This document shows positions 39,807 to 59,498 of a DNA stretch of 64,000 nucleotides, piece by piece. Position numbers and translations under genes: made by a program. Numbering within the stretch: the stretch's first letter is position 1; each line of letters opens with the position of its first letter. The DNA lies in NCBI GenBank assembly GCA_001778375.1, contig MFGV01000074.1, positions 9,651 through 73,650 of the forward strand. The letters run 5' to 3'. The notes under the pieces were generated by a model. The model was not told the origin of the DNA. It searched no databases and was given only the letters and a program-made list of their open reading frames with translations. The DNA comes from Candidatus Firestonebacteria bacterium RIFOXYD2_FULL_39_29. GTDB lineage: Bacteria; Oederibacteriota; D2-FULL-39-29.

Positions 39807-39843
39807 GCGGGCGTAATTCAGCGGTAGAATGCCACCTTCCCAA
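39807..39843 (+). repeat. 37-nt direct repeat of the tRNA-Gly 5' half (acceptor stem, D arm, anticodon stem and loop). This is the left attachment site of the integrative element.
   Basis: GCGGGCGTAATTCAGCGGTAGAATGCCACCTTCCCAA is identical to 59424-59460. The identity stops at the 3' end of the anticodon loop. Confidence 0.75.
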
Positions 39844-40263
39844 AGCGTTTAGACCGATAGCTGTTCTCCTTGTATCCAAATGATTTTCTGATTCTAAAAG
39901 GACTTCTCTTGAAATCGTGAGTCTCACCCGAGCCCAGATTTACTCATCCAGGTGCATCCGTCAGGCACATTTTGGGCACACTTTTGTTTTGCCAGAAGGT
40001 GACTGGGATCACCCTAAGAAACCGTGTTATTTTTGGTTTGAAAGGGTTATTTAAAAGTTATAATATAAAATTATATTGGAATAGCTAAAGGAAGGAATAA
40101 CCCCGTTTGCGATGGAAATGAACCCGTTTAACATTTGGGCTGTTCCGTTACAATCAAAAACCTGATTTCCCTTTATAAAGAAGATTAATACTGCTATAAT
40201 TGTTAAAAGAGACGGCCATAAGAAGAGTATTTTGTATGGGCTGAATAACTGGAGCAATCTTAT

Positions 40264-41913
40264 ATGCCAAAAGAAGATTTTAGTAGCTGGTCAAGAGAAG
40301 AATTATTAACAGAAATTAAAAAGCTAAGGAAGCGAAAAAAATATGGTATGGTGTGGGAAGATAAACCGGAGCAAGTTGCCGAGCTTTGTAAAAACAAACT
40401 CCCTGTCTTAATAGAACAACACGATAAAATAATAGAAACCAATAAAGACCTCCCTGTTAATATTTTAATTGAAGGTGACAATTATCATGCCTTGTCAGTC
40501 TTAAATTATACACATAAAAATAAAATCGATGTCATATATATAGATCCTCCTTATAATACTCGAGCAAAGGATTGGAAATATAATAACGACTACGTTGATG
40601 AAAACGATGATTATAGGCATAGCAAATGGCTCTCGATGATGAATAAAAGAATAATTTTAGCTAAGAATCTCTTAAGAAGGGACGGAGTTCTAATAGCAAC
40701 AATTGATGATCATGAATTATTGGGGTTGCTCGGATTGTTAGAAGGTGTAAATGCCAAGAATATTGGTATAGTTTCAATTTGTATTAAACCTGAAGGAAGA
40801 CGTCAAAGCAAATATATAATGGAAGCACACGAATATGCATTATTTGTAACATGGGGTACCCCGATTACCAGAGGTCTAAATGTAGACTTTGGTTTAGATT
40901 TTCCAGAAAAAGATCCGGTATCCAATTTCCGATGGGAAGGGTTGATGCGAAGAGACGCTTCGCGTGAGGACAGAGGGTCAGACTACTGGTATGCATTCCA
41001 TGTTTCTAAAGAAGGTAAAATATTTTTTGAGCCAGGTAAAGGAACGAGTGAAGTTTGGCCAATAAATGTTAAAGGGATTGAGAGGGTTTGGCTTTGGGAC
41101 AAACAAAGAGCAAAAGACAATGTGGGCGAGCTTAGTGCTGTTGTTCGAAAAGAAAGAATAACTATCTATTACAAACGTCGTGAACTTGGTCGTGTAAAAC
41201 CAACATCGTTTTGGCATGGAAGTAAGTATAATGCTAATGCATACGGCACGCGTCTTTTAAAGACGATCCTCCCAGAAACAAATTTTGATTACCCTAAAAG
41301 CTTGTACTCTGTTATGGATTGCATAGATTTGTTTCTTCCGAAGAATGGTATAGTTCTGGATTATTTTGCAGGATCTGGAACCACTGGTCATGCTGTCTTA
41401 ATGCTTAATAATGAAGACAAGGGTAGTAGAAAATTTATTGTCTGCACTAATAATGAAAATAAAATTGCAGAAGGTGTATGCTATCCAAGAATAAAAAGAG
41501 TAATAAAAGGTCTTAAAGGGCACGATGATATAACTGGAATGCCTGCAAATTTAAAGTATTATAAGACAGATTTTGTGGACGCTTCTCCGACTGATAAGAG
41601 TAAAAAGATGTTAGTTGATAAATCAACGGAAATGTTGTGTCTAAAAGAATATTGTTTTGAGGAAGTAAAAAAAGGTAAAGAATATAGAATATTCAAAGAT
41701 TCACAAAATAAGCATTTAGGTATAGTTTATGATGATGAGGGAATTGAGGATATTAAGAAGGAAATAAGAAAGATTAATAAATTAGTTGTTATATACGTTT
41801 TCTCACTTGACGAGAATGCGAGGGAAGAGGAATTTGAAGACATAAAACATCTTGTAGAATTAAAACCTATACCAGCAGTAATTTTGAATGTTTATAAGAG
41901 GATATTCAAATGA
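40264..41913 (+). CDS. mod: Type III restriction-modification system methyltransferase (Mod subunit; N6-adenine beta-class)
   Basis: Motif IV (DPPYN) precedes motif I (FAGSGTTGHA), which is the beta-class order. The gene overlaps the downstream res gene by 4 nt. Confidence 0.8.
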   Translation: MPKEDFSSWSREELLTEIKKLRKRKKYGMVWEDKPEQVAELCKNKLPVLIEQHDKIIETNKDLPVNILIEGDNYHALSVLNYTHKNKIDVIYIDPPYNTRAKDWKYNNDYVDENDDYRHSKWLSMMNKRIILAKNLLRRDGVLIATIDDHELLGLLGLLEGVNAKNIGIVSICIKPEGRRQSKYIMEAHEYALFVTWGTPITRGLNVDFGLDFPEKDPVSNFRWEGLMRRDASREDRGSDYWYAFHVSKEGKIFFEPGKGTSEVWPINVKGIERVWLWDKQRAKDNVGELSAVVRKERITIYYKRRELGRVKPTSFWHGSKYNANAYGTRLLKTILPETNFDYPKSLYSVMDCIDLFLPKNGIVLDYFAGSGTTGHAVLMLNNEDKGSRKFIVCTNNENKIAEGVCYPRIKRVIKGLKGHDDITGMPANLKYYKTDFVDASPTDKSKKMLVDKSTEMLCLKEYCFEEVKKGKEYRIFKDSQNKHLGIVYDDEGIEDIKKEIRKINKLVVIYVFSLDENAREEEFEDIKHLVELKPIPAVILNVYKRIFK

Positions 41914-44102
41914 TCGAATTAAAGGAGTATCAAAAAATAGCTATAGAAGGTCTTAAGAATAAAACAGAAAAGCTATTAAGATCTCCAGAAAATGAAGTGA
42001 TCATTTTTCAAGCTCCTACAGGCTCTGGAAAAACTGTAATGGTGTCAGAGCTGTTAAAAGAAATAGTGCGGAATAAGAAGGGTGATAAAAGTTATTCATT
42101 TGTCTGGGTGTCAGTTAGAATGCTTCATGAACAAAGCAAAGAAAAGTTAGAAAAATATTACGAAGATGATAGGCTAATAAAGTGCTCATACTTTGAAGAC
42201 TTGGAAGACAGGAAGATAAACGAAAATGAAATTTTGTTTATTAACTGGCACAGCATAAACAAGAAAGACATAAATATATTTGTAAAAGAAAATGAGCGAG
42301 ATAATAATTTGAATAGTATTATTCGGAACACAAAAGAGGAAGGAAGAACTGTAATATTAGTTATTGACGAAAGCCATCATTCCGCAAATTCAGAGAAGTC
42401 AAAAGAATTAATAGAAGTTATTGGCCCTAAAGTAACCATAGAGGTTTCTGCTACACCTCATCTAACTGACAAAGTCTCTGAGATTGAGAAAGTCCATTTA
42501 ACTGATGTTAAATCTGAAGAAATGATTAAGATGGAAATTGTTGTTAATCCTGAATTTAAAAGTATCCAAGTCGGGTCAAAAAGTGCTGACGAACTGGTAA
42601 TTGATCAGGCATTAAAGAAGAGAAAAGATTTGAAATTAATGTTCGAGAACGAAGGTTCAAATATTAATCCGCTTGTGTTAATTCAATTGCCAGACAGTAA
42701 AGGAGATTTGATTAACAAAAAAGAAGATGTGGAAAAAATTCTAGAATCAAAAGGAATTACTGAAAAGAACGGGAAATTAGCAATATGGTTGTCAGAAGAA
42801 AAAACTGATACTTTACCAAATATAGAAAAAAATGATAATGACGTAGAGGTCTTGGTATTTAAGCAAGCTATTGCGTTAGGTTGGGATTGCCCAAGAGCAT
42901 CAATTCTGGTGATATTTAGAGAATTGAAAAGTTTTGTTTTTACTATACAGACGATCGGCAGGATTATGAGAATGCCAGAGTTGCGTTATTATGTTAAGAA
43001 TGAGGAACTGAATAAAGGATTTGTTTTTACAAATCTGCCAAGCATTGAAATAACAGAGGATTACGCAAAAGACTATATATCAATATATGAAGGTAAAAGA
43101 GATAACAAGTTGTATGAGGAATTAGCCTTGTCATCAGTTTTCATGAAAAGGCAAAGAGAAAGAACACGTTTGTCAGGGGCCTTTACGAGAATATTTGTGA
43201 CGGTGGCTGATGTGAACAAATTACAAAATAAAATTAATGTGGACAAATCTAAAATTATCAATCCAATAATATCAGATGGGAAGATAAAAGATGTGGATAA
43301 ACCTGGGAAGATAGAGGACAAGGGCCAGGTGTATTTGACTTTAAGTGAGAAGGAATTGCAAGAAAAATTTGATAGATTTATCATTCAGAATTGTTCTCCT
43401 TATGCTCCAGTTGATTCAAGTGATAGAATGAAAACAGCTATATACCAATACTTTAAGCAAAAATACAAAATAGAAAAGTATGATCCAAAGGTTCAGGGTA
43501 TAGTCTTAGGGAAGGAGAATGAACAAGCATTTGTGGATGTTATAAACCTTGCAAAGGAGCGATACAAAAAAGAAGTCATAGAAAAACTATCCGAAACAAA
43601 GGAAAAGGAAGAGACGCCGGAATGGGAAGTTCCAATAGTCATTAACTATAACAAAAGGTATAAAAAAGAAGACCATGAGAAGTCTATTATTAAACCATTC
43701 TATGTGTCTGAACAAAGTGATCCCGAGAGAAAGTTTGTAGAATTGCTTGACAAATCTAGTAAGGTAAAATGGTGGTATAAGAACGGAGAGGGCGAGGTTA
43801 AATATTTTGCAGTACCGTACAAGGATGAGAATGGCATAGAAAGAAGTTTTTATGTTGATTTTGTAGTTAAATTTAAAGATGGCAGGATTGGACTATTTGA
43901 TACTAAAAGCGGAATGACAGCAGAACAGGCTGGCCCAAGAGCGGAAGGCTTACAAAAATACATTAAGAAGGAATTGAAAAAAGTAAAAAAGCTTGAGGGT
44001 GGAATAGTCATATCTGTTAAAAATAGTTGGAGAGTTAATAGTAACGATAAGTACAAATATAATAAAGATGACCTCTCGGAATGGAAAATCTTGGACATAT
44101 AG
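41910..44102 (+). CDS. res: Type III restriction enzyme Res subunit (SF2 helicase-like, DEAH-box)
   Basis: Walker A (QAPTGSGKT), the DEAH-like motif (VIDESHH), and helicase motif VI (QTIGRIMR) are present. It sits immediately after mod. Confidence 0.8.
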   Translation: MIELKEYQKIAIEGLKNKTEKLLRSPENEVIIFQAPTGSGKTVMVSELLKEIVRNKKGDKSYSFVWVSVRMLHEQSKEKLEKYYEDDRLIKCSYFEDLEDRKINENEILFINWHSINKKDINIFVKENERDNNLNSIIRNTKEEGRTVILVIDESHHSANSEKSKELIEVIGPKVTIEVSATPHLTDKVSEIEKVHLTDVKSEEMIKMEIVVNPEFKSIQVGSKSADELVIDQALKKRKDLKLMFENEGSNINPLVLIQLPDSKGDLINKKEDVEKILESKGITEKNGKLAIWLSEEKTDTLPNIEKNDNDVEVLVFKQAIALGWDCPRASILVIFRELKSFVFTIQTIGRIMRMPELRYYVKNEELNKGFVFTNLPSIEITEDYAKDYISIYEGKRDNKLYEELALSSVFMKRQRERTRLSGAFTRIFVTVADVNKLQNKINVDKSKIINPIISDGKIKDVDKPGKIEDKGQVYLTLSEKELQEKFDRFIIQNCSPYAPVDSSDRMKTAIYQYFKQKYKIEKYDPKVQGIVLGKENEQAFVDVINLAKERYKKEVIEKLSETKEKEETPEWEVPIVINYNKRYKKEDHEKSIIKPFYVSEQSDPERKFVELLDKSSKVKWWYKNGEGEVKYFAVPYKDENGIERSFYVDFVVKFKDGRIGLFDTKSGMTAEQAGPRAEGLQKYIKKELKKVKKLEGGIVISVKNSWRVNSNDKYKYNKDDLSEWKILDI

Positions 44103-44299
44103 GGTTTGCCCTTCCTTTTGTAATCCCTTAATATAAAATTATATTAAAACTATTTTAACGTGTAAAAACGGCGTTTGCTCTCGAAATTGCCCCGTTAAAG
44201 TGTTGACTACTAAGCCATTATCTCGTTAAGGTCAAAATACCTTATTTTGATATTGAGATTATACGGGAAGTAATATATAATTATATTAAGGTAAATGAA

Positions 44300-44542
44300 A
44301 TGAAAAAGAATGAAGTTTTTAAAGTACACGTGCCAATGAACGCGGAACTAACTAAGTGGTTAGAGAATATTGGTATTGATGCCAGAGAACTTGGTGGGTT
44401 CAGGATACCAAAAACCTCAATAATTAAGGCTTGTATAAGAGCGGTTATGAAGTACGATATAGACCTGAGCAAAGTTAAGACCGAAGAAGACTTAGTAAAG
44501 AAAATTGAAAAAGCTATAGAAGTCAGTAAAAAGAAGCGATAG
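44300..44542 (+). CDS. Small hypothetical protein (80 aa; possible regulator)
   Basis: An ORF with a ribosome-binding site. Its promoter region contains the third copy of the AATATA-AA-TTATATT palindrome. Confidence 0.4.
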   Translation: MKKNEVFKVHVPMNAELTKWLENIGIDARELGGFRIPKTSIIKACIRAVMKYDIDLSKVKTEEDLVKKIEKAIEVSKKKR

Positions 44543-44576
44543 AGGACTCTGTTATTCGGAGTCCTCTATTTTTTTA
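44541..44576 (+). terminator. Rho-independent terminator
   Basis: AGAGGACTC-tgttattcg-GAGTCCTCT forms a 9-bp stem and is followed by ATTTTTTTAT. Confidence 0.7.
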
Positions 44577-44622
44577 TAAAGACAATATGCCCATTAGGGC
44601 AGATGGGCAAGGAGACGGATAG

Positions 44623-45645
44623 ATGAAGTCAAAAACGGTACTACTTAATAAAGGAGAGATGAAATATGTTGATAACATAGATAAAACTATTAAAGATAAT
44701 AACGGTAAAGGAATAGGTAAAGGCAAGGTAATAAGAGCCATCATAAAAGCAGTTAAAAGCAAAGAGCTTGGAAATGTCGCCATTAAGAAAGCCAAGAATA
44801 TTTTAACCCTATTAATACTTACCTTCCTTTTGACCGGAATAGGTTTTGCTGAGGAAAAGATAAATGTTGCAGTGTTAAGCTTTGAGTCGAAGAATGTATC
44901 AGAGACTGACACTTCAATATTTGTAAGTTTATTTAGACACGATCTTTACAGGACAAATAAATACTTAGTGATAGGAAGAGACAAGATGGAGGATGTTTTA
45001 AAAGAACAGAAGCTCCAGATGACAGGGTGTACCTCAAGCGAGTGTGCAGTGGAAGTCGGCAAGTTACTTAATGTTCGAAAGATATTTATTGGCGACATAA
45101 ACGAGTTAGGCGGAATCTATTATATTACAGTTAGACTTCTTGACGTAGAAAGCGGTAGCGTAGATAAGTCAGAAAGAATCAGGTGCGAATCAAAAAATGA
45201 CTTCGAAGAATGTAGCGTTAAACTGGCATCTAATATTACAGGGGTTCAATTAAAATATGAACGTATGAAAACAAGTCAATATTTGTCTGAAACAAATAAA
45301 TATTCAGAGATAGTTAAGCCCTCGAAACCTTTAGACGCATGGGCATGGATAGCTGGCGGATTTGCTATTGCAACAGCAGGGAGCTACTTAAATGCTTCTA
45401 ATGAATATGATTTATATCAAAAGGCGCAGAGTAATGAGTCAGCACTTGATCATAAAACTAAAACGCAGACATGGGATACGGCAACGCTGGCATGCGGAAT
45501 TGGGACAGGGGTGTTTGGGTTGATTGCATTAATTACTAATACATCAACAGAAAGTAATGTGTCGGAATTGGATAATGACAAAATACATTTAGTATGCAAA
45601 CCTTCCTTTGACGGAATAAGCATAGCATTATGCGGGAGGTTTTAA
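44623..45645 (+). CDS. Membrane-anchored protein with a periplasmic TolB-N/CsgG-like domain (uncertain) and C-terminal TM helices
   Basis: The N-terminus has a basic cytoplasmic tail, then a TM helix. The segment INVAVLSFESKNVSETDTSIFVSLFRHDL...GKLLNVRKIFIGDINELGGIYYITVRLLDVESGSV resembles TolB-N/CsgG-type periplasmic modules. Confidence 0.35.
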   Translation: MKSKTVLLNKGEMKYVDNIDKTIKDNNGKGIGKGKVIRAIIKAVKSKELGNVAIKKAKNILTLLILTFLLTGIGFAEEKINVAVLSFESKNVSETDTSIFVSLFRHDLYRTNKYLVIGRDKMEDVLKEQKLQMTGCTSSECAVEVGKLLNVRKIFIGDINELGGIYYITVRLLDVESGSVDKSERIRCESKNDFEECSVKLASNITGVQLKYERMKTSQYLSETNKYSEIVKPSKPLDAWAWIAGGFAIATAGSYLNASNEYDLYQKAQSNESALDHKTKTQTWDTATLACGIGTGVFGLIALITNTSTESNVSELDNDKIHLVCKPSFDGISIALCGRF

Positions 45646-45646
45646 A

Positions 45647-46024
45647 GTGAAGCCAATTAATAGAATAACGGTAGTACTAATATTAAGCGTTTTGATAGGT
45701 GTTGGATGTACCCGTAGTTGGAACAATCCTTATGATTCAATAAATCTCGCAACAAAAATACAGGCATACAAACCGAATATAACTACGATTGGAAATACTT
45801 CAACCACTATGAGATTAACTTGGAATATAAAATATGGGGAAGAATGGACAAGCTCATATACGAGTAACATCTATAGAGATGGGGTGAAAATAGGAACAAC
45901 CACTGCAACATATTATGAGGATTATCCAGTTGTTATCGGGACGACATATTCTTATCAAAGGACTATTTCTGGAGAAGGGGTAGAAAGTTTAAAAAGTGAC
46001 GTCGCAATCTATAAAGCGAATTAA
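45647..46024 (+). CDS. Small lipoprotein (FN3-like beta-rich)
   Basis: Lipobox LIGVGC. Confidence 0.4.
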   Translation: MKPINRITVVLILSVLIGVGCTRSWNNPYDSINLATKIQAYKPNITTIGNTSTTMRLTWNIKYGEEWTSSYTSNIYRDGVKIGTTTATYYEDYPVVIGTTYSYQRTISGEGVESLKSDVAIYKAN

Positions 46025-46038
46025 GAATGAGGTGCGTT

Positions 46039-46734
46039 ATGAGTAGAAAAGATGTTGGCTTGTTTATATTAGGGCTAGTAATTGTATTTGTTGGAGGTTG
46101 TGGACAAGGTGAAATTGAAAAACTAAAATCAGAGAATGCTTCATTGAAGAATGAGATCAAGTGTTTAAAAGAGACGGCAGATTATCATTATAAGGAAGGT
46201 GTTTTATTATTGAAGGATAAGTCATATTATAATGCGAAAACGGAGTTTGAAGCTGTAATTGAGAAGTATCCAACGAGTTCTTTAGTTGCATCTTCAAGGG
46301 AGCGTTTAACTGAAATTAATAGGGAGTTGGTAAGGGTCGAGGCGGAAAGGATCGCTGGAGAAAAGCGTAGACAAGAAGAAGAAAAATACAAGCCAAAAGA
46401 AGATCGGGATGCAAAAGATGAATGGGTCAACTTTCGTAGTGCTGAGGAAAAATACAAAGGAACCGTTACAACTTGGAGATTTAAAGTGAGTTACATTTCA
46501 AGGGAAAATCCCTTGGGTCGTCTGGCTTCGAGTTACAGGGATAATAATAGCTATAGTGTTAGTGTTCTTGGTCCAGAGGGGTATACATATCAATGTGCTG
46601 TTATGTTAAAAAAAGTTCCAGAAGTTAAGGAAGACGATTGGATGGTCGTTACTGGGAAATTTGAATACGTTTCTTCAGACAACGTTGTAGTACTAAGTCC
46701 TATTAAGGTAATTAACGAAGGTTTCAAGAAATAA
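46039..46734 (+). CDS. Lipoprotein with a coiled-coil and TPR-like region
   Basis: Lipobox FVGGC. The YYNAKTEFEAVIEKYP motif is BamD/YbgF-like. Confidence 0.4.
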   Translation: MSRKDVGLFILGLVIVFVGGCGQGEIEKLKSENASLKNEIKCLKETADYHYKEGVLLLKDKSYYNAKTEFEAVIEKYPTSSLVASSRERLTEINRELVRVEAERIAGEKRRQEEEKYKPKEDRDAKDEWVNFRSAEEKYKGTVTTWRFKVSYISRENPLGRLASSYRDNNSYSVSVLGPEGYTYQCAVMLKKVPEVKEDDWMVVTGKFEYVSSDNVVVLSPIKVINEGFKK

Positions 46735-47155
46735 AGTAGAACAAAACAAGACAGTTTAAATTTAAGAGCCTTGAGGGTTAAAAGCCCAAGAGGCTCTTTC
46801 TATTTGGAGCCAAGAAGAATGCGAGAAAAAGAAGAGTTGGAGACGGAAGCAATCGAGTTGGTGGATATCATGGTTAATGTTTTGAAAGATATGGGCTTCT
46901 CGTATTCAAGGGCGGTGACGGACATTTTAAAAGTAGAGGTATATTGTCACCTTTTTGCCAAGTACGGGAAAAGTAAAGGAAGGATCAATTATAAACGGGC
47001 AAATACGCGAGCAAACGGGGCTTAAGCATGAGATCTCGGATCGCTATAACCAAATATATTATAAGAATAAGAAGAGAAGGAAAACGGGGGTTTAAACGTG
47101 AAAAAGAATGTTTTTAATATAATGGAAGTAAAAATCGTATTTTTAAGGAGCAGAT

Positions 47156-51057: not shown

Positions 51058-51537
51058 ATGTACGGTGTTCGTAAACCAGAAAAGAAAAACGCTGAAAGGA
51101 TGAGGAGACTTAAAATTACGGCTGTTAAGGTTTGGCTGTATCATTACGAGAACGGAAAGCTGATTGAAAGTTATATCCGTTCATTGGATAAGTACGATAG
51201 GCAAGGCAGAGTAATATCTTCAGAGCAGTATAATAATAAAGGCAAGGTTACCTCCAAAAGTATTTACGGGTACTTGAATGACGGGAGGATTACCGAGGTA
51301 AAATATTTACATGGCAAGAAGCTTTGGCAGATGAGCTACCGTTATACAAAGGATAAACAGATTTCTGTGATTAGATTCTTTACTCAGAAAGGCAGGATTA
51401 AGAAGCTCCGAAGATATGTTACAAGGTTTGATGAAAAGGGCAATGTTTTGGAATCAATAACCACCGATCAAAAAGGTAGAAAATATATTCTTGAAAAGTT
51501 CGTCCATGAGTATTCCAAGGAGACGGAGGCGATATGA
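51058..51537 (+). CDS. MORN-variant/YwqK-like repeat protein
   Basis: The units YENGKLIESY / YDRQGRVISSEQY / NNKGKVTSKSIYGY / LNDGRITEVKY repeat. Confidence 0.4.
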   Translation: MYGVRKPEKKNAERMRRLKITAVKVWLYHYENGKLIESYIRSLDKYDRQGRVISSEQYNNKGKVTSKSIYGYLNDGRITEVKYLHGKKLWQMSYRYTKDKQISVIRFFTQKGRIKKLRRYVTRFDEKGNVLESITTDQKGRKYILEKFVHEYSKETEAI

Positions 51538-51779
51538 AGGGTTTGTTGAAGAGGATGAAAGATGGGGATGTCGTGGTGGTTGTTACTGGCAAAGTTACAG
51601 AAAACTTAAGAGGTATTCTAGAGGCATTGGTAAAGCGTAATAATAGTTTAGTTGTAAAAAAGGTTTCAAGAAAGAAGCGCCACATCACGATAAAAGAAGT
51701 ATATGATGATTTGATTGTAAGAAGGGCTGTAATTATCCTTACTGATAAAGCAGAATACGAAGCCATAGTAATTGGATAG
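51534..51779 (+). CDS. Hypothetical small protein
   Basis: ORF only. It overlaps the upstream stop codon. Confidence 0.3.
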   Translation: MKGLLKRMKDGDVVVVVTGKVTENLRGILEALVKRNNSLVVKKVSRKKRHITIKEVYDDLIVRRAVIILTDKAEYEAIVIG

Positions 51780-51820
51780 TTGTCTGTAGACAAAAGGCAA
51801 GTAATGTGTTATACTATAAT
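51780..51820 (+). promoter_or_regulatory. Promoter with an overlapping operator. A perfect 6-2-6 palindrome (TTGTCT-GT-AGACAA) overlaps the -35 TAGACA. A 17-nt spacer leads to a -10 TATACT/TATAAT.
   Basis: The palindrome spans 51780-51793. The -35 is at 51787-51792. The -10 is at 51810-51815, with an overlapping TATAAT at 51815-51820. An AAGGAGG ribosome-binding site follows, then the ATG at 51839. Confidence 0.55.
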
Positions 51821-51838
51821 GGACAAGGAGGGACAACA

Positions 51839-52435
51839 ATGGACAATGCAGATGAATTACCATGTATAGGGGAGATGTTAACTATTGAAGATGTATCGAA
51901 GTATTTAAAGGTAAACAAAAAGACAATTTACAGGATGATTAACTTAAGACAGATACCTGCTTTCAAAGTAAGTAACCAATGGCGATTTAAAAAATGTGAA
52001 CTTGACAAATGGATTGATGAAAGCAATGTTGTAACAGAGATTCCGATTCTAGGAACAGTTGCGGCAGGGAAACCCATGTTTGCAGAGGAAAATTATGAAG
52101 GGATGCTTACAGTAGATAAGTCAATAGTCGGGAAGTCAAAAGATATTTTTGCGCTGAAAGTTAAAGGTTCGAGTATGATCGATGGGAACATAGAAGACGG
52201 GGACTATATTGTTATCCAAAAACAGCCTCAAGTTTTTCAAGGCGAAAGAGCTGTTGTAATTGTAAACGGCGAGGCCACGGTAAAAAAGTACTATGAAGAA
52301 CAAAATATGATCAGATTGCAACCACAAAATGAAACAATGCAACCAATTATTGTTGACCCGAGTACGAATGAAGTTTCTATTGCTGGTAAAGTTAAAGCTG
52401 TCATTAAAAGAAATAAAAAAGTTGTGAGGGATTAA
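51839..52435 (+). CDS. LexA-like self-cleaving repressor: excisionase/MerR-type HTH fused to an S24 peptidase domain
   Basis: The N-terminal HTH_17-like segment is MLTIEDVSKYLKVNKKTIYRMINLRQIPAFKVSNQWRF. The cleavage-site region is GTVAAGKP (LexA VAAGEP). Ser and Lys are in LexA-like contexts (KVKGSSMIDGNIEDGDYIVIQK; ERAVVIVNGEATVKKY). The start is taken at the ribosome-binding-site-supported internal ATG. Its stop (TAA) lies 1 nt before the capV ATG. Confidence 0.7.
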   Translation: MDNADELPCIGEMLTIEDVSKYLKVNKKTIYRMINLRQIPAFKVSNQWRFKKCELDKWIDESNVVTEIPILGTVAAGKPMFAEENYEGMLTVDKSIVGKSKDIFALKVKGSSMIDGNIEDGDYIVIQKQPQVFQGERAVVIVNGEATVKKYYEEQNMIRLQPQNETMQPIIVDPSTNEVSIAGKVKAVIKRNKKVVRD

Positions 52436-52436
52436 A

Positions 52437-53384
52437 ATGAATGATTGTTTTCAAATACTTTCATTAGATGGCGGTGGGATAAAAGGTCTATTCTCGGCAG
52501 TGTTACTTGCTAAGCTTGAAGAAGACCTCAAAATAAAGGTGATTGATCATTTTGATTTAATAGTAGGAACTTCTACCGGAGGTATTATTGCTTTGGGCCT
52601 CGGGTTGGGAATGACGCCAAAGGAGATTGTCGACTTTTATCTTGAGAAAGGCCCAAGGATATTTGCCGGTATCCCTGTTGCTTCATGGTTTAAACATATT
52701 TTATTTAATAAATATGATGGGAAAATACTAGAAGATATTTTAAAAGATGATAAATGTTTTGGTTCGAGATTGCTTGGAGAAAGCAAAAAACGATTGGTAA
52801 TACCATCTTTTGATACTGATTCGGGAGAAGTGTATATTTTTAAGACGGCACACCATGAACGGTTTAAACGAGATTTCAAATATCCTGCTTGGAAAGTAGC
52901 GCGTGCAACAACAGCAGCGCCTTCATTTTTTCCGACATGTAAGTGCATTGATAACATTAGTTTGGTGGATGGAGGATTGTGGGCGAATAATCCGAGTATG
53001 ATTGGCTTGGTTGAGGCAATCAAGGTATTAGAAATACCTATTGATACGATAAAAATATTGAATATCGGGACAACAGAAGAATTATCAAAAAAATCCTTTG
53101 TATTGAAATATTTCGGGGGTTGGTTGCCAAGGGCTTTGCCTGCTATTAAAACGATATTGCAAGCTCAATCTTCCGCGGTTTGTTCTCAATGCAAGTTATT
53201 AATAAAAGATCACTATGTTAGAATTAGTCCAAAAGTACCAGAAGGATTATTCAAATTGGATAAGCTAAACATGCAAGACTTGTATGCTTTTGCTTCAAAG
53301 CATAGCAGAGATAACTCTCCTATTTTTGAGAATGTTTTTTCTGGACACAAGTCAGGAGAGTTTGTCCCAATTCACAAAATATAA
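52437..53384 (+). CDS. capV: Patatin-like phospholipase (CBASS CapV-type effector)
   Basis: Oxyanion hole (ILSLDGGGIKG), GxSxG (VGTSTGG), catalytic Asp (LVDGGLWANNP). Confidence 0.75.
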   Translation: MNDCFQILSLDGGGIKGLFSAVLLAKLEEDLKIKVIDHFDLIVGTSTGGIIALGLGLGMTPKEIVDFYLEKGPRIFAGIPVASWFKHILFNKYDGKILEDILKDDKCFGSRLLGESKKRLVIPSFDTDSGEVYIFKTAHHERFKRDFKYPAWKVARATTAAPSFFPTCKCIDNISLVDGGLWANNPSMIGLVEAIKVLEIPIDTIKILNIGTTEELSKKSFVLKYFGGWLPRALPAIKTILQAQSSAVCSQCKLLIKDHYVRISPKVPEGLFKLDKLNMQDLYAFASKHSRDNSPIFENVFSGHKSGEFVPIHKI

Positions 53385-53401
53385 TGTAGGAGGAAAAGAA
53401 A

Positions 53402-54517
53402 ATGTTAACAGCTGATAGAGTTTTAAAACTTGCGCATGACTTAGATTCAATTGTGGAAAATTTAGATATATCTGAAAGCAGATATTTAGAAGCTGTAAAA
53501 AGATATGAAGCTGTTGGATCATGGTTGAGTAGTGAAAAGTCTCCATTGCTTAAATTAAAGTTCATACCAAGGATATATTCTCAAGGCTCTTTTCGTCTTG
53601 GTACTGTAGTAAGGCCGATCAATAATAAAGATGAGTGCGATATTGACTTGGTATGTTTACTAACAGCAGAAGAGCAGAAAAGCATTACATCGAAAGAACT
53701 AAAAGAAATTGTCGGGGAAAGCCTGAAACAGAATGGGATATACGCAAAGTTGCTCGATAAAGAAGGAAGAAGGTGTTGGACGCTCAATTACGAGAATGAG
53801 TTCCATTTGGATATTTTACCTGCCATATTAGATGTAGAACTAAATAAAGTTGGTGGTTTGTATAAAACAGCGATAAAAATTACCGATAAAGCTGAGAGTG
53901 TGTATAAGTGGGAGCCTAGTAATCCAGATGGATATGCGACATGGTTTTCAGAAAGGCAAAAATTGATATTTGCCAGCTTAAAAAAATCTATGGCTGCATC
54001 TTTAAAAGAGAGTATAGATGAAGTACCAGATTATAAAGTCAGGACACCTCTTCAGAAGAGTGTTCAAGTTCTTAAGCGTCATCGAGATGTATATTTTGAT
54101 GGAAAAGAGAATAAGCCTGCATCTATAATCATTACAACTATATGTGCTGTGTTATACAATGGGCAAGCGGATGTGTATACTGCTTTGCATGACATCTTGA
54201 GTGATTTTGATATTGAACAATATAAGAAGGAAGAAGGCTATTATTTGGCTAATCCGTCCAATATTGCTGAGAATTTTATGGAGAGATGGAATGAAGATGA
54301 CTCCCTTCCATTGGCTTTCTTTGAGTGGTTGGAAGATGCTAAGAATGATTTTTGTGATACAGGATTGATAAGAAAAAGTAGTGCAGATGTAACTACCATT
54401 CTCGAGGCAAAACTTGGAACCACTATAAAGACTACAAGAAATAATCTTGTTAATAGCGTTCCTCTAGTATCAATAAACACTGGGAATGTTAGCAAGAGAC
54501 AGCCATGGGGTTTGTAG
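53402..54517 (+). CDS. cGAS/DncV-like nucleotidyltransferase (CD-NTase)
   Basis: GSFRLGTVVRPINNKDECDIDLV matches GS-x(n)-DxD. The third acidic residue sits in HLDILPA, the hDhhPA strand typical of CD-NTases. A strong ribosome-binding site (AGGAGG) is present. The gene lies between a patatin effector and an E2-like gene. Confidence 0.65.
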   Translation: MLTADRVLKLAHDLDSIVENLDISESRYLEAVKRYEAVGSWLSSEKSPLLKLKFIPRIYSQGSFRLGTVVRPINNKDECDIDLVCLLTAEEQKSITSKELKEIVGESLKQNGIYAKLLDKEGRRCWTLNYENEFHLDILPAILDVELNKVGGLYKTAIKITDKAESVYKWEPSNPDGYATWFSERQKLIFASLKKSMAASLKESIDEVPDYKVRTPLQKSVQVLKRHRDVYFDGKENKPASIIITTICAVLYNGQADVYTALHDILSDFDIEQYKKEEGYYLANPSNIAENFMERWNEDDSLPLAFFEWLEDAKNDFCDTGLIRKSSADVTTILEAKLGTTIKTTRNNLVNSVPLVSINTGNVSKRQPWGL

Positions 54518-55218
54518 ATGTTGACAGTCAATATAAAGAATTAAGGAGTCAATACCCATATTTGTTCTTGAATAAAGATGAGAATGTTTTTCGTATTAGC
54601 GGAACAATTGTTATCAATGTTGCCGAACTAAATGATGCTTTTGAAATTGAGATAGTTATTGATAAAGAATATCCTCTGAAACCACCCTTTGTTAGAGACC
54701 TTGATTCTAAAATACCGAAAGACTACCATCGCATTAAAGGTGGATACTTTTGCTTGGAAACCCCATACACGTTAAATCAAATATTTAAACAGCAACCTAC
54801 ATTGCTTTATTTCGTTAATGAGTTAGTTATTCCGTATTTGTTTAATTATCATATGTTTCAAAAAACAGGGATAATGCCTTTTGGGCAAAGGAATCATGGA
54901 ATTACAGGCATAATGGATGATTTTAAGAATCGGTTAAATGCAAACGACGATATTACTGTAATCAAGCTTATTCAGATGTTAGTGGAAGATAATTATAGGG
55001 GCCATTATGACTGTCCGTGCGGGAGCAAAAAAAGGATTAGAAATTGTCATGCTGATAAATTGTTAAAATTAAAAGTTGAAGGATATAACTTTATGGAAGA
55101 TTATCTCATGATGGTGTTTTCTGTCAAAGATAAAGTAAATATTGTGCCATTGATTTCCAAGAAGGCAAGGCAATTTATTAAGGAGAAGGGAGATTCCCCA
55201 AAGCCAGATAAGCTATAA
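54505..55218 (+). CDS. E2 ubiquitin-conjugating-like protein (CBASS type II-short Cap2-like) with a C-terminal Cys/His cluster
   Basis: UBC-fold signature: FEIEIVIDKEYPLKPPFVRDL...DYHRIKGGYFCLETP (compare YP..PP...HPNI...GRICLDIL). CPCGSKKRIRNCH is a Zn-ribbon-like cluster. It overlaps the end of the CD-NTase gene. Confidence 0.5.
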   Translation: MGFVDVDSQYKELRSQYPYLFLNKDENVFRISGTIVINVAELNDAFEIEIVIDKEYPLKPPFVRDLDSKIPKDYHRIKGGYFCLETPYTLNQIFKQQPTLLYFVNELVIPYLFNYHMFQKTGIMPFGQRNHGITGIMDDFKNRLNANDDITVIKLIQMLVEDNYRGHYDCPCGSKKRIRNCHADKLLKLKVEGYNFMEDYLMMVFSVKDKVNIVPLISKKARQFIKEKGDSPKPDKL

Positions 55219-55397
55219 AACTTCCCTCGTTTTATTACACAAAATATAGTTCAAGAAGAAAATCCCTCCATGGAAACATTAACAAAATCAATAAGTCGGA
55301 AAATCGAGTATGATGGTTATTTCCCTCGTTTTTTATATCAAGTGATTATTATTTGCTGAAAAACCTGATTTGGGGCGAATAAAAATGAATAGGGGTA

Positions 55398-55426
55398 TTG
55401 ACAAAAACAGGAAACAGAGGTATACT
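55398..55426 (+). promoter_or_regulatory. Sigma70-like promoter (TTGACA, 17-nt spacer, TATACT) upstream of the primase/helicase gene
   Basis: TTGACA lies at 55398-55403 and TATACT at 55421-55426. The direct repeat TTCCCTCGTTTT lies upstream at about 55213 and about 55320. Confidence 0.5.
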
Positions 55427-55569
55427 TACAATAAATAGAGCGTGGCTGAATCGCGTCGCGCTGGTTGAATTTGAAGTTACCGAGAAAAACCTTCTATAAA
55501 ACTTCTCATGGTCGAAAGACCGCGAGGAGTTTTTTATTTTGTAGTCAGAAAAATAGAAGGAGTGAATAA

Positions 55570-57279
55570 ATGGAAAAATCTCGGGAAGGCAATCAAAATA
55601 ATACGCACATTGTAAAAGCTGTAAGAATAGAACCTCCTGAAGTTGACGAATATTATCTTATAAGCGAAAGAGAAAAGGTGCAAGTACTGTCTTTGGAAGA
55701 TGATAATTCGGCTGAGGTTCTTTTTCAAAATGAGAAATATCCAAGGGTGGTTAATTACTTTGATGATTGGGAACTGCTCCCCTATGAAAAGATCAAAAAC
55801 CAAATCATCGAAGTAAGAGAACAGAATAAAAGACCTTTTTTGATCAAAAAAGAAGTTGCTTCCTTGGTGATAGAAAGTTTGTGTAAGCACGGATTCTTTG
55901 CTTGGAGCAACGAAGAAAGTTATTACTTTAGAAACAAAGACCACAAGCTTTTCAGTGTTAATTCGATAGCCTTTCAAGCTTTTGTCGAGTTTAGCTTTGG
56001 GTTGAATTCGACCGAAATAGAATATAAGTATTTAATTGAGAGTATCAAAGCCTACGCCTACCGTGAGAAAACAGTAACTGTTTACAACTTCTGCTTCTAT
56101 AATAGATATTTAAGTTGCCTGTATATTTCTAGCTTTGACGGGATGATGTATAGGTTAAACGGATATATAGTTGAGTCGGTTCCAAATGGGACAGACGGTA
56201 TTCTATTCATAGATGATCCAAGTTGGGAGTCATTTGAGTACTTGGGTCAGAATATAAGATCGGGATATGTCTCAGAGCTATTAGTGGATACAATAAATTT
56301 TACTTTATCAACAGAGGTGCTACTCCTTCCAAGTGAACAACGGGGTTTTTGGTTGCTAAATATATTTTCCCTGTTTTTTGAAAGTCTATTGCCTACAAAA
56401 CCACTAACGCTGTTTCTGGGTCAGAAGGGGTCTGGAAAAACCTCAACTTTGTCTTGGATATTGTCGCTTTTTTTTGGAAGCAAGGTGCGAGTTCTTTCTA
56501 TGGGAAAGGATAAAGAAGATGCTTTCCTTGCAAGTATCTGTAACGAATACTTAGTGGTCTATGACAATGTTGATGGCAAGATTCTTTGGCTAAATGACCA
56601 CTTAGCAGCTGTTGCCACGGGATCGGGTATAATTCGCAGAAAATTATACACGACGAATGAAAAGAGTAAAATGTTTCCGCGGGTGTTTATATTTTTGACT
56701 TCAAGGACTCCGAACTTTAAGAGAGATGATTTAGCAGACAGAATGCTCATTTTCAATGTTGAAACATTTAAAGAGTTCAAATCTGAAGAACAATTAAGAA
56801 AGGAAAGAGCAGATAAAAGAAACGAATTGATGACAGAATTGCTGAATGACCTTAACACAATAGTTCAACACTTGAAAACAGATGGGAACCCAGAATTTAA
56901 GACAAACCACAGGATGGCTGATTGGGCTAAATTAGTATGTAGGATAGGCAGAGTTGTAGGGGTGGAAAATAAAATTATTTTGGCATTGGAGAAGCTTCAG
57001 CATGATCAAAGTGAATTCTTGCTTGGGGATGAACCTATAGCACAGGCACTTGAATTGTGGACAGGAATACCGGGGTATGAAGCACGGAGCCTAACTGCGA
57101 AAGAGCTTCTGGATGAACTAGGGTCTGCATTCCCTGAAATAAGGAGCACATATAGGAGTCCGAAAAGTCTTGCTCAGAAACTCACACACATAGAAAAGAA
57201 TTTGAAGATCTACTATGAGATAAAGACGGAAAAGGAGGAGGGCAAAGCTAAAACATATAGTTTTAGTAAACGGAAATAG
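55570..57279 (+). CDS. Phage/plasmid primase-helicase (P4/D5-family SF3 NTPase C-terminal domain)
   Basis: Walker A (GQKGSGKTS), Walker B (LVVYDNVD), then ATGSGIIRRKLYTTNEKSKMFPRVFIFLTSRTP. This matches the LTGGDTITARKKY...FKPTAKLIFATNHLP block of P4-type primases. Confidence 0.6.
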   Translation: MEKSREGNQNNTHIVKAVRIEPPEVDEYYLISEREKVQVLSLEDDNSAEVLFQNEKYPRVVNYFDDWELLPYEKIKNQIIEVREQNKRPFLIKKEVASLVIESLCKHGFFAWSNEESYYFRNKDHKLFSVNSIAFQAFVEFSFGLNSTEIEYKYLIESIKAYAYREKTVTVYNFCFYNRYLSCLYISSFDGMMYRLNGYIVESVPNGTDGILFIDDPSWESFEYLGQNIRSGYVSELLVDTINFTLSTEVLLLPSEQRGFWLLNIFSLFFESLLPTKPLTLFLGQKGSGKTSTLSWILSLFFGSKVRVLSMGKDKEDAFLASICNEYLVVYDNVDGKILWLNDHLAAVATGSGIIRRKLYTTNEKSKMFPRVFIFLTSRTPNFKRDDLADRMLIFNVETFKEFKSEEQLRKERADKRNELMTELLNDLNTIVQHLKTDGNPEFKTNHRMADWAKLVCRIGRVVGVENKIILALEKLQHDQSEFLLGDEPIAQALELWTGIPGYEARSLTAKELLDELGSAFPEIRSTYRSPKSLAQKLTHIEKNLKIYYEIKTEKEEGKAKTYSFSKRK

Positions 57280-57727
57280 GAGATATAAATGGACAAACAC
57301 TATATTATTAAAAAGGGATTCACAATCCGATTATATCGCTTATATTGTTTATTGGTAAAAAAATTTAAAAATATAATATTATATATTTTCACTTCAAATG
57401 AAATAGTGATATATGGAAAATCGGTCTAAATATTTAGGTCATTATGGTTTTCTGTATTATTTCAAAGCTGATGTCTTGCCTCAGCTTATATTACACAGGA
57501 GGTAGTGTATGGCTTTAGAAAAGTTGAGAGAGTATTTTGGGGTTACAGAAATACCACAGAAAGAGGTAGAAAAGGTTCCTGAAAAAGTATCAACAAAAAA
57601 AGGATGTTTGAAAATGGTTCAGGTAGGGCTGGATATGGATGACAACAGCCAATTGGAAAAAGGCAAGGATATAGAGAATTTGCCTGATTGGTTATAAAAA
57701 AAGGAGTATTAGAAGGAGGGCGAGTTT

Positions 57728-58180
57728 ATGGGTAAGGATATTATCGAAGAATTATATAATGTTGACAAAGTTCTAAATATTCCGTTTGTCGGTTTAGGGT
57801 TGATCGGAGAAAAGCTTGTGGTGTCATTTGAAAAAGACGATATGACCACAGAGAGGATGTCCTGCTTTACGGAAGGGCATTACACAGGGAATCCCAGTAT
57901 AAGGCTTCAGGCAGGGGAACGGTTCATTGTTGCCACAAGAGCTCAAAGGCAGGCTCTTACGGTCAAGCCAGAGGCTCTAAGCGTTGAACGGCGTTACTTG
58001 AGCGTGAAAGAATGTGCCGTATATACTGGGGTTAGCGTTAAAACGCTGTATCGGTGGAGCCGTGAGTCCAAAGTCCCTACCAGTAAAATCGGACATATCC
58101 TGCGGTTTGACAGGGCAGAAATAGAGAAGTGGGTAGGCAGGTATAAAAGGAGCGCTACTAATGCTGACCTTTTGGATTGA
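57728..58180 (+). CDS. Excisionase-family HTH protein (Xis-like)
   Basis: C-terminal HTH_17: LSVKECAVYTGVSVKTLYRWSRESKVPTSKIGHILRFDRAEIEKW. It lies immediately upstream of the integrase. Confidence 0.55.
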   Translation: MGKDIIEELYNVDKVLNIPFVGLGLIGEKLVVSFEKDDMTTERMSCFTEGHYTGNPSIRLQAGERFIVATRAQRQALTVKPEALSVERRYLSVKECAVYTGVSVKTLYRWSRESKVPTSKIGHILRFDRAEIEKWVGRYKRSATNADLLD

Positions 58181-58246
58181 AAAGACGGCTACGAAGGGCT
58201 ATTATTGTAGCGGATACAAGGGGACAGCTTTGGTCGAGGAGACCAA

Positions 58247-59329
58247 ATGTTAAATGAAGCTGTTCCATATCCTAACCTGACAAGGCGTAAAAGCGGAGTA
58301 TGGCTTTCCGATTTTATTGATCCGTCAGGTAAGAGGATACGCCGTTCTTTGAAAACGAAAGACTTGCGATTGGCACAAGTAAGAGTCCGAAAGATGATGT
58401 CGGAAGCCTACGAGAAAGGATACTTCGACCTTAAGAGACCAGTAAAGATGTATTTTTCTGAATTGGCTGAGAAAGTTCTTCAATATGCTAAGGACAAAAC
58501 CAGAAGATATAAAAAGGTTTATCTGCCGACTATCAAAACGTTAACAAAACATATTGGCAGGAAAACGCTACGTGAGATTACTAAGGGCGTAGTTCAGGAA
58601 GTTCAAGCAGAGATAAAAGAAAGCATATCGGAAGTCAATTCAAATAATGCGATGGTTGTCTTAAAGCGGATGTTCAATCTAGCGATCGACTGGGAATATA
58701 TAGAAACTAATCCAGTCAGGGGCATCGAGCTTTACAAAGTGCCCAAGAGAAAAGTACGGTTTTTAACAAATGAAGAAATTGAAACTGTACTTGGTTGCTG
58801 TGTAGGGCAGATGAAGGATATCGTTTCAGTGGCTTTGCATACGGGGATGAGGAAAGGGGAAATACTCGGTTTAAAATGGGACAACGTTGACCTGAGTAAC
58901 AGGTTGATAGTCTTAGATAAAACCAAGAATAATAACATAAGAGAAATTCCCATGAGCTCTGACACCTATGGCATGCTACTGAAGAAGTATCAGGAGAGAA
59001 AGCCCCACCGAGAAGACTATGTTTTTCCAAACGCTGATAACGAGCAGTATCGAGATGTGGCGGCGTTTAGGAAGGCGGTAAGCTTGACGGGAATTAAATG
59101 CAGGTTCCATGATTTACGACACACGTTTGCTTCTCAGTTGGTTATGGCGGGCGTTGATCTTGTCACGGTCAAGGAGCTTCTGGGACACTCAGAGCTTGAT
59201 ACAACACTCATCTATGCCCATCTGGCACCGAAGCATAAGAAAGACGCCATAGCTAAGTTGGAGTTGCACTACGATAAAGTGGCGGAAGAAAGTTTTTCGT
59301 ATAGCCCAGATTTGCTCAAGAGGGCGTAA
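58247..59329 (+). CDS. int: Tyrosine site-specific integrase (P4-like, with an arm-binding N-domain)
   Basis: N-terminal LTRRKSGVWLSDFIDPSGKRIRRSL (DUF4102/arm-binding-like). Catalytic R (HTGMRKGEI), HDLRHTFAS, and Tyr (LIYAHL). It is adjacent to a tRNA gene. Confidence 0.8.
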   Translation: MLNEAVPYPNLTRRKSGVWLSDFIDPSGKRIRRSLKTKDLRLAQVRVRKMMSEAYEKGYFDLKRPVKMYFSELAEKVLQYAKDKTRRYKKVYLPTIKTLTKHIGRKTLREITKGVVQEVQAEIKESISEVNSNNAMVVLKRMFNLAIDWEYIETNPVRGIELYKVPKRKVRFLTNEEIETVLGCCVGQMKDIVSVALHTGMRKGEILGLKWDNVDLSNRLIVLDKTKNNNIREIPMSSDTYGMLLKKYQERKPHREDYVFPNADNEQYRDVAAFRKAVSLTGIKCRFHDLRHTFASQLVMAGVDLVTVKELLGHSELDTTLIYAHLAPKHKKDAIAKLELHYDKVAEESFSYSPDLLKRA

Positions 59330-59423
59330 CCGTATGGCACATTTTAGTCACATTTTGAAAAAAAGTAAATTTATCAGATTCAACTTTACAAAACGCCTTG
59401 TAGATGCTAATATAAATTCCAGT

Positions 59424-59498
59424 GCGGGCGTAATTCAGCGGTAGAATGCCACCTTCCCAAGGTGGACGTCGAGGGTTCAAGTCCCTTCGCCCGCTCCA
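59424..59498 (+). tRNA. tRNA-Gly (anticodon CCC), with an encoded 3' CCA
   Basis: GCGGGCG acceptor stem pairs with CGCCCGC. D arm is AGCGGTAGA. Anticodon stem CCACC/GGTGG carries the loop TTCCCAA. T arm is GAGGGTTCAAGTCCCTT. Discriminator is T, followed by CCA. Confidence 0.85.

Follow-up and report, generated by a model that had tools for sequence, protein, structure and literature searches.

A defence island probably integrated at the anticodon loop of tRNA-Gly(CCC), with duplication of the 5' half of the gene, in Candidatus Firestonebacteria

The DNA considered in this work (hereafter the window) is a stretch of 64,000 nucleotides (nt) from Candidatus Firestonebacteria bacterium RIFOXYD2_FULL_39_29 (assembly GCA_001778375.1, contig MFGV01000074.1, positions 9,651 to 73,650 of the forward strand). 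It contains an interval of 19.6 kb, bounded by two copies of the 5' half of tRNA-Gly(CCC), that is very likely a site-specific integrative island, inserted by a crossover in the anticodon loop of this tRNA gene, with the element supplying the tRNA's 5' half. In the course of events that we propose, the island (39844-59423) would have entered the Candidatus Firestonebacteria chromosome by recombination of its own attachment (att) site, attP, with tRNA-Gly(CCC), carried out by the tyrosine integrase that the island encodes, and an adjacent HTH_17 excisionase-like protein would probably assist its excision. Strand exchange would take place in the 7-bp loop TTCCCAA, between the inverted stem arms CCACC and GGTGG, at cleavage positions that we infer, and attP would carry, behind a promoter, positions 1-37 of the tRNA, the mirror image of the loop-to-3'-end stretch found in most elements that target tRNA genes. 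The integrated state would have the intact tRNA on the integrase side, its immediate upstream sequence, including the likely promoter, consisting of element DNA, and the host promoter would be left stranded at the far end together with the orphan 5' half and directed into the co-oriented genes of the island.

A single tRNA gene is present in the 64-kb window, viz. tRNA-Gly(CCC) at 59424-59498 of the (+) strand, which was identified by both ARAGORN and Rfam (RF00005, 65.2 bits). The 37-nt sequence GCGGGCGTAATTCAGCGGTAGAATGCCACCTTCCCAA is found twice in the window without any mismatch, at 39807-39843 and at 59424-59460, both copies being on the (+) strand, and the repeat extends to 38 nt when the preceding T is counted (39806-39843 = 59423-59460). 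None of 100 dinucleotide-preserving shuffles gave any 37-mer match at ≤3 mismatches. The acceptor of this tRNA begins with GCGGGCG, its anticodon stem is formed by positions 26-30 (CCACC) and 38-42 (GGTGG) and its loop by positions 31-37 (TTCCCAA), and the identity of the two copies stops at position 37, the final base of the anticodon loop; the observation of an earlier note on this DNA, that the left copy represents the first 37 nt of the tRNA and ends with the loop, is thus borne out. The 3' half of tRNA-Gly is present in the window in one copy only. The possibility that the left repeat forms part of a second complete tRNA was ruled out, as the sequence after 39843 completes none by either ARAGORN or Rfam.

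In terms of attachment sites, the orphan 5' half (tRNA positions 1-37 and the upstream T, 39806-39843, (+) strand) would represent the core of attL, and the intact, reconstituted tRNA-Gly(CCC) (59424-59498, (+) strand) would represent attR. Positions 1-37 of the tRNA in attR belong to the shared identity block that holds the crossover, and they may therefore be derived from the element, with positions 38-75 being host DNA. The reconstructed attB reads ...ttataaacatcgtttacggctGCGGGCG...CCTTCCCAAggtggacgtcgaggg..., and the reconstructed attP reads ...gatgctaatataaattccagtGCGGGCG...CCTTCCCAAagcgtttagaccgatagctg.... The edge of the identity block is located at the 7-nt loop within the CCACC-TTCCCAA-GGTGG of attB, which places this site among the anticodon-loop att sites (the symmetric sublocation), and the orphan fragment, which lies upstream of the intact tRNA-Gly on the same strand, has the 5'-fragment configuration of Islander.

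The interval between the repeats (39844-59423) is 19,580 bp in length and every sizeable gene within it is on the (+) strand. Its G+C fraction is 0.367, in comparison to 0.416 in the left flank and 0.44 in the right flank, and this step in composition coincides with the repeats. The host genes flanking the island encode, on the left, a DUF998 protein, BrkB and an AAA_14/DUF4143 protein, the last of which matches the PADLOC candidate defence family PDC-S01, and, on the right, NrdJ and an oxidoreductase of the GFO/IDH family. A tyrosine integrase of 360 amino acids (aa) is encoded at the right end of the island (58247-59329, (+) strand; Pfam Phage_integrase, 3.7e-34, together with a SAM-like N-terminal domain); it is co-oriented with the tRNA and its stop codon is located 94 nt before it. 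This agrees with the arrangement given in the earlier note, in which the integrase gene is followed by the tRNA, both on the (+) strand, and the intact tRNA is on the integrase side. In an alignment of 35 members, the catalytic residues R202, K227, H288, R291, H314 and Y323 of this protein are conserved, and the interval thus holds a PF00589 integrase as in the Islander definition; homologues at E≤1e-20 number 4,949. The gene preceding the integrase (57728-58180, (+) strand) encodes an excisionase-like HTH_17 protein (Pfam, 3.8e-10; PHROGs phrog_66, "excisionase and transcriptional regulator", 1.7e-12), which is a putative recombination directionality factor.

The contigs that encode an identical NrdJ are of two types, one of them 100% identical to the window and the other carrying a sister element. 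The sister type (L008, L009, L012 and L014, including GCA_036779865.1) has an integrase that is 88% identical to that of the window, an excisionase (Xis)-like protein that is 59% identical, and unrelated cargo, and its element occupies the same position in the same orientation. The differences between the window and the sister type run to 26 nt before the tRNA, after which L008 and L012 are identical to the window through the tRNA and about 200 nt beyond it; L012 is 99.7% identical over all 4.8 kb to the end of the window, and strains with different elements share, downstream of the tRNA, a sequence of 100% identity. Four independent assemblies (L274-L277, including contig MFGU01000035.1 of GCA_001780375.1) end at 39884-39891, which is 41-48 nt past the orphan half, and contig L013 begins at 59398, the first difference between the window and the sister type. 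Located at both edges of the island, these contig ends look like strain-level branch points, such as a coexistence of the two island types in the sampled populations would produce.

Loci from more distant relatives lack the integrase. In L185 (NrdJ 93% and BrkB 90% nucleotide identity) the gap between BrkB and nrdJ is 2.3 kb, in comparison to 21.9 kb in the window, and it holds a gene for a DUF1016/YhcG PDDEXK nuclease and a tRNA-Gly(CCC), with no integrase. In L186 (NrdJ 87%) an AAA_14 gene is followed, after 108 nt, by an identical tRNA-Gly(CCC) and, after a further 227 nt, by nrdJ, again with no integrase. A third locus, L188 (NrdJ 86%), retains a junction of the attL type, in which the 5' half carries a 25-nt insertion and the break occurs at ...CCTTCCCAA|AGC..., as in the window. 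About 100 nt homologous to the left arm of the window follow this break, and after them come a Fic gene, a promoter and an intact tRNA, with no integrase; judged from these sequence similarities, L188 is a decayed relative of the window element. The step in G+C content, the integrase and Xis-like module, the sister element and the island-free relatives support the proposal, already put forward in the earlier note, of an anticodon-loop crossover with a 5' portion supplied by the element.

The slot to the left of the tRNA shows variation of its own. In L185 (3962-5400, corresponding to window 38388-39806) the gene for the DUF1016/YhcG nuclease stands in place of the AAA_14/DUF4143 gene. Because this nuclease gene replaces the AAA_14 gene of the window, with the tRNA-Gly inverted relative to nrdJ, the left slot varies independently of the island. 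The nearest relatives of NrdJ in reference genomes were also considered: in L015 there is no tRNA upstream of nrdJ, and the contig of L016 starts inside nrdJ, neither of them being informative. Of the proteins closely related to the AAA ATPase of the left flank, P0123 is without synteny, and the contig of P0122 breaks off 148 nt past the gene, short of the junction.

The behaviour of related integrases provides further information regarding the use of this site. The closest homologues on long contigs (45-57% identity) are all located 33-71 nt upstream of a co-oriented tRNA, viz. tRNA-Gly(TCC) in L095, L097 and L098, tRNA-Gly(CCC), again beside nrdJ, in L099-L101, and tRNA-Ser(TGA) in L102. A broader set of 85 related loci (28-57% identity) was assembled from 80 loci found in a profile-based metagenome scan and 5 loci of close homologues. 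Within this set, 24 of the 85 loci have a co-oriented tRNA within about 30-155 nt of the integrase match, 21 have a convergent tRNA within about 40-275 nt of it, and the remaining 40 have no tRNA after the integrase (14 of these 40 have <300 nt of sequence left). The orientation of the tRNA tracks the tree of the integrases, with nearest neighbours concordant in 36 of 44 cases where 22 are expected (p ~0.0005), and the clade to which the window integrase belongs is entirely co-oriented and targets tRNA-Gly. Relatives on viral contigs are more distant (27-38% identity) and nearly all convergent, and they add no further examples of the 5' geometry.

Two of the convergent relatives, L125 (tRNA-Arg) and L171 (tRNA-Met), are complete, and their repeats extend from tRNA position 33 to the 3' end or beyond. 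In these tRNAs the anticodon loop (CTACGAA and CTCATAA, respectively) begins at position 33, and the window, whose repeat covers position 1 up to the end of the loop, represents their exact mirror image. In both forms the 7-nt loop is located at the edge of the identity block that is distal to the integrase. By analogy with the anticodon-loop att model (PMC8371274), the loop would serve as the overlap region and the stem arms as the core binding sites. The 5' mode appears to be the norm in the clade of the window integrase, on the evidence of the adjacency of integrase and tRNA genes and of the remnant in L188. A broader proposal, which we regard as possible and advance tentatively, is that this integrase clade is spread widely over phyla without cultivated members (Firestonebacteria, Omnitrophota, Nitrospirota and others), with insertion on the 5' side as its normal mode, that the family has switched repeatedly between the 5' half and the 3' half at the same symmetric loop core, and that integration brings about a systematic exchange of promoters, in which the rebuilt tRNA receives a captured copy of the tRNA promoter from the element and the strong host promoter is redirected to the orphan half and to co-oriented island genes, which are anti-phage genes here.

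One of the loci with a co-oriented integrase shows an arrangement of its own. In L099 (8640-11284; also in L100 and L101), from another Firestonebacteria-like organism, two integrases in tandem, sharing 73% mutual identity, are located upstream of tRNA-Gly(CCC) and nrdJ. No tRNA fragment is found between the tandem integrases of L099, and a type IIG/Alw26I-like restriction-modification (R-M) system is located further upstream.

Promoter-like sequences are found at both ends of the island. The left site, TTGATA-17-TGcTACAAT (39708-39736, (+) strand; 10/12 in a consensus scan, with an extended -10), resembles a host tRNA-Gly promoter and lies 70 nt upstream of the orphan half; it no longer adjoins the intact tRNA and points instead to the orphan half and the island. 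The sequence at 39706-39742 is homologous to that upstream of tRNA-Gly(CCC) in L185, L186 and L188, and no terminator is predicted between the left promoter-like site and mod, a gene of the island discussed below. The right site, TTTACA-17-TGcTAATAT (59385-59413, (+) strand; consensus scan), ends 10 nt before the first base of the tRNA and lies in element DNA. The sister element L008 and the element of L099 have both conserved this site, which is homologous to the native tRNA-Gly promoters of related species as well as to the left promoter-like site; no terminator is predicted between the integrase gene and the tRNA. Because the element site is homologous to the native promoters in L185, L186 and L188, the element appears, from these alignments, to carry a captured copy of the host tRNA-Gly promoter along with the 5' half. 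The suggestion in the earlier note that the element might bring a new promoter gains support from a site located 10 nt before the tRNA, within element DNA, that is retained in the sister element, and we consider it somewhat more probable than otherwise that the element-borne promoter drives the rebuilt tRNA.

In related species that are free of the island, a conserved leader is located between the promoter and tRNA-Gly, consisting of GCGGGCGTAAT, a hairpin and ATTACGCC(CG). This leader is made up of direct and inverted copies of tRNA nt 1-11, and it is found in L186 (9637-9677), in L188 (about 3500-3535) and in L185 (5151-5330, minus strand), the last of which contains several units.

Both arms of the element also share a block of 55 nt (AGCCCAGATTTnCTCA ... 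GGCACATTTT ... CACAnTTT), which is co-linear on the two sides and is present in the sister element L008 as well. The left-arm (P'-type) block, AGCCCAGATTTACTCA ... GGCACATTTTGGGCACAC, is located at 39931-39985 ((+) strand) and is about 70% identical to, and co-linear with, the right-arm (P-type) block at 59303-59357 ((+) strand), which overlaps the end of the integrase gene. The motif GGCACATTTTG occurs 6 times at ≤1 mismatch, where 1.2 occurrences are expected, and 3 of the 6 are within the arm blocks. On the basis of this conservation, the arm blocks are putative arm-type binding sites for the integrase or the Xis-like protein.

A number of observations weigh against the proposal of site-specific integration. 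No conspecific empty site has been found, as all 17 of the 17 contigs with an identical BrkB either carry the island or stop at its edge, and no excised circular (attP) junction was detected in the collections scanned, viral contigs included. When metagenomes were scanned for a junction of the left flank with the 5' half, 0 matches were obtained, in a collection that evidently holds no samples of this organism and is thus uninformative on empty sites. The island-free loci L185 and L186 are from other species and are rearranged: the AAA_14 protein of L186 is only 24% identical to that of the window and is a paralogue, not an orthologue, and the tRNA-Gly of L185 is inverted relative to nrdJ. Hence, the expectation of the earlier note that related genomes should show the AAA-ATPase gene, tRNA-Gly and nrdJ in succession holds at the level of species (with AAA_14 in L186 and DUF1016 in L185) but not for conspecific strains. 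The earlier note had also stated that mobility would be contradicted by related strains with the same 19.7 kb, no empty site and no att duplication; the att duplication is present, and the comparison favours mobility at the species level only. In addition, no second complete co-oriented element with a 5'-half repeat was found within the 10-kb flanks of the relatives, both promoters are consensus matches only, and a second recombinase of 204 aa within the island has no explanation.

The missing empty site and circular junction accord with an alternative in which the island arrived as proposed but is now a fixed, immobile remnant, with the repeat as its scar and with strain variation produced by homologous recombination over the conserved flanks and arms. 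Products of decay are indeed found at related loci (L188 is without an integrase, and the tandem integrases of L099 have no att copy between them), and res and the gene for a CsgG-like protein show small indels in individual contigs. However, the two copies of the repeat in the window are 100% identical, the integrase is full-length with all of its catalytic residues, and the gene for the Xis-like protein is intact. Further, this site is filled, in a strain whose NrdJ is identical, by a sister element with other cargo and an integrase 12% diverged, and the breaks of four assemblies at the left edge of the island indicate recent turnover. For these reasons we consider fixation rather unlikely, and the element may still be able to move today.

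The second recombinase raises the question of whether the 19.6 kb could be a composite of two elements, one with the 360-aa integrase and the other with the 204-aa recombinase, the repeats bounding the array. The island does contain two tyrosine recombinase genes (50431-51045 and 58247-59329), the fragment of a PolX-like gene beside the shorter of them hints at rearrangement, and tandem integrases are known from L099-L101. Yet a comparison at a word size of 7 reveals no part of the tRNA copied within the island, the shorter recombinase is without N-terminal DNA-binding domains and resembles the catalytic domain of Xer proteins and invertases, and independent assemblies show the entire 19.6 kb as a co-linear stretch of 100% identity, so that a composite origin seems to us improbable. 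A tandem array with an internal att copy was ruled out, there being no internal tRNA fragment. It is scarcely credible that the 37-mer is a tRNA pseudogene fragment formed by local duplication or deletion and unrelated to the integrase, in a defence hotspot reshuffled by homologous recombination. In favour of this reading are the variable neighbourhood outside the island (AAA_14/PDC-S01 in the window versus the DUF1016 nuclease in L185) and the presence, in related species, of short copies of tRNA nt 1-11, direct as well as inverted, upstream of the tRNA. Against it, the break coincides exactly with the boundary of loop and stem, the same break with a homologous arm is found in L188, a mirror-image break is found in the complete convergent relatives, integrases of the family abut tRNA genes in 45 of the 85 loci, and the G+C step coincides with the repeats.

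The preferred interpretation, a site-specific integrative island, is accompanied by cargo rich in defence genes, as the earlier note had recognized and as PADLOC bears out for type III R-M and for the cyclic oligonucleotide-based antiphage signalling system (CBASS). Two genes of the island form a type III R-M system (40264-44102, (+) strand), with Mod at 40264-41913 and Res at 41910-44102 (Pfam N6_N4_Mtase and ResIII; PADLOC MTase_III, 6.5e-77, and REase_III, 2.3e-17); the mod and res genes are adjacent, as expected for such a system, and overlap by 4 nt at 41910-41913. In one contig (L278, 8000-8041), 42 nt replace window 43362-43369 (8 nt in res) and split Res into open reading frames of 497 and 251 aa; this change could be inactivating or phase-variable. 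The CBASS operon (52437-55218, (+) strand; PADLOC and Pfam) consists of genes for a patatin phospholipase effector (52437-53384), a CD-NTase (53402-54517) and an E2-like protein (54505-55218), with PADLOC matches to phospholipase Effector (6.8e-98), Cyclase (2.3e-115) and E2 (3.7e-89) and Pfam matches to Patatin, SMODS and DncV-like families. With the cyclase, effector and E2 encoded by adjacent genes, it corresponds to CBASS type II (E2-only), and no E1 or JAB gene was detected with it by Pfam. Directly upstream of this operon, a gene at 51806-52435 ((+) strand) encodes a putative regulator that combines HTH_17 with an S24 peptidase of LexA/CI-like type (Pfam Peptidase_S24, 4e-31; HTH_17, 3.9e-15).

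The other genes of the island, all on the (+) strand, are less readily assigned. A three-gene block at 44623-46734 encodes a CsgG-like lipoprotein (Pfam CsgG, 2.3e-6), a 125-aa protein and a BamD/TPR-like protein of 235 aa (weak NCBIfam BamD match), and no phage function was assigned to this block by PHROGs. In contigs L004 and L281, the gene for the CsgG-like protein carries a 157-nt deletion (window 45344-45500). Contig L004 also shows, at 1-934, a DPP-IV-like gene joined to the interior of BrkB at window 38076, which represents either a rearrangement or a chimeric contig. The region 47156-49134 encodes a 550-aa protein with a weak C-terminal match to DUF3874, followed by a DUF2958-like protein of 109 aa, with no family at the curated cut-off. 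It is followed, at 49721-51045, by a fragment of a PolX-like nucleotidyltransferase (49721-50263; Pfam DNA_pol_B_thumb) and the 204-aa tyrosine recombinase (50431-51045; Pfam Phage_integrase), which consists of a catalytic domain only, has Xer- and invertase-like NCBIfam matches that are all below the cut-off, lacks the N-terminal DNA-binding domains, and has no tRNA fragment near it. Lastly, a 569-aa protein with a weak AAA_15 match and no significant family is encoded at 55570-57279. No virion structural, packaging or lysis genes were found by Pfam, NCBIfam or PHROGs, and a prophage is thereby ruled out; the sole phage-like match, weak and partial, is that between the 125-aa protein and a PHROG of tail proteins (E=3.4e-6, 73 residues). 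Because phage structural genes are absent, the element is an integrative defence island of non-phage nature.

Some features of the sequence downstream of the intact tRNA also bear on the history of this locus. About 200 nt downstream of it, at 59697-59732, a copy of the final 17 nt of the tRNA (16/17 identical) is followed by TAATTTTGCAC. The latter sequence is the native flank directly after the tRNA in L188, to which the flanks of L186 and L185 are similar in their first few bases only, and the sequence right after the window tRNA is unrelated to this L188-type native flank. The copy at 59697-59732 has the appearance of a scar left by a classical element with the 3' end as its target, which would mean that tRNA-Gly has been used from both sides. 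Fragments of the 3' end of the tRNA are likewise found just downstream of the tRNA in L099 (11548-11569, 22 nt, and 11637-11654, 18 nt) and in L139 (1606-1638, 33 nt), and they suggest further scars of 3'-side elements. Between the tRNA and nrdJ, which is B12-dependent, lies a spacer of 710 nt (59499-60208) without any Rfam match at the gathering threshold, and no cobalamin riboswitch was detected in it; parts of this spacer (59888-59961 and from 60022) are conserved in L185.

The integration of elements into the 5' half of a tRNA gene has been described previously. The Islander definition admits a 5' fragment upstream of the tRNA gene (tDNA), and a 5' tDNA fragment was recorded in 159 islands versus a 3' fragment in 3,760, with anticodon-centred sites in 2,083 (Hudson, Lau and Williams, 2015; PMC4383910). 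The assessment in the earlier note that the geometry is uncommon agrees with these counts, though it was already known. In a review of archaeal recombinases the 5' mode is described as "seldomly encountered in bacteria" (PMC8371274), and Williams (2002), as cited in that review, is the source for "very few exceptions" with regard to its bacterial use. Islands at the 5' end of arg2 have been noted in a survey of Klebsiella (bioRxiv 10.1101/2020.11.02.365908). In the archaeal element pTN3, the rebuilt tRNA is cut off from its original promoter (Cossu et al., 2017; PMC5495485).

The window element is of significance in that it shows the minority mode of integration, into the 5' half of a tRNA, with clear limits and exactly placed att sites, in a phylum known from metagenomes only. 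Its integrase family, which uses both orientations of the core, offers a possible system for studying how an integrase comes to use the other side of a tRNA, and it could show the effects of promoter exchange on the expression of the tRNA and of island genes. In Firestonebacteria, the element also marks tRNA-Gly(CCC) as a hotspot, used from two sides, for defence islands.

In comparison with known systems, the window element resembles the 5'-fragment islands of Islander in having its integrase inside the interval, a co-oriented upstream 5' fragment and a tRNA regenerated from element sequence. It differs from the catalogued 5' islands in that its host, one of the Firestonebacteria, is from a candidate phylum without cultivated members, its integrase clade seems to have the 5' geometry as a rule, and the element promoter is visibly homologous to native tRNA-Gly promoters. 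With the class I anticodon-loop integrases of L125 and L171 it shares the family (34-46% identity), the abutment of the 3' end of the integrase gene on the tRNA, and a block edge at the 7-nt loop, but its block consists of positions 1-37, not of position 33 to the 3' end, and the element, which lies upstream, replaces the promoter rather than the terminator side. As in pTN3, an SSV-type "suicidal" element of Thermococcales (PMC5495485, PMC8371274), attB is the 5' half of a tRNA and the tRNA would be expressed from the element side, a likeness that is drawn from geometry. The archaeal pTN3, in contrast, has its attP inside the integrase gene, which is split upon integration, whereas the integrase gene of the window is intact and the core is located 94 nt after its stop codon; membership of the pTN3 type is ruled out, as the open reading frame (360 aa) stays intact upon integration. 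As to cargo, the window's type III R-M and CBASS are like those of known defence islands, with nothing unusual in the systems themselves. The geometry of the window element is thus rare but already catalogued (about 4% of Islander islands), it has been demonstrated experimentally in archaea (pTN3), and it overturns nothing; what the present work adds is modest, viz. a 5' mode that is apparently the norm within a clade, mirror-image solutions at the same loop within one family, and an element promoter that is homologous to the native one.

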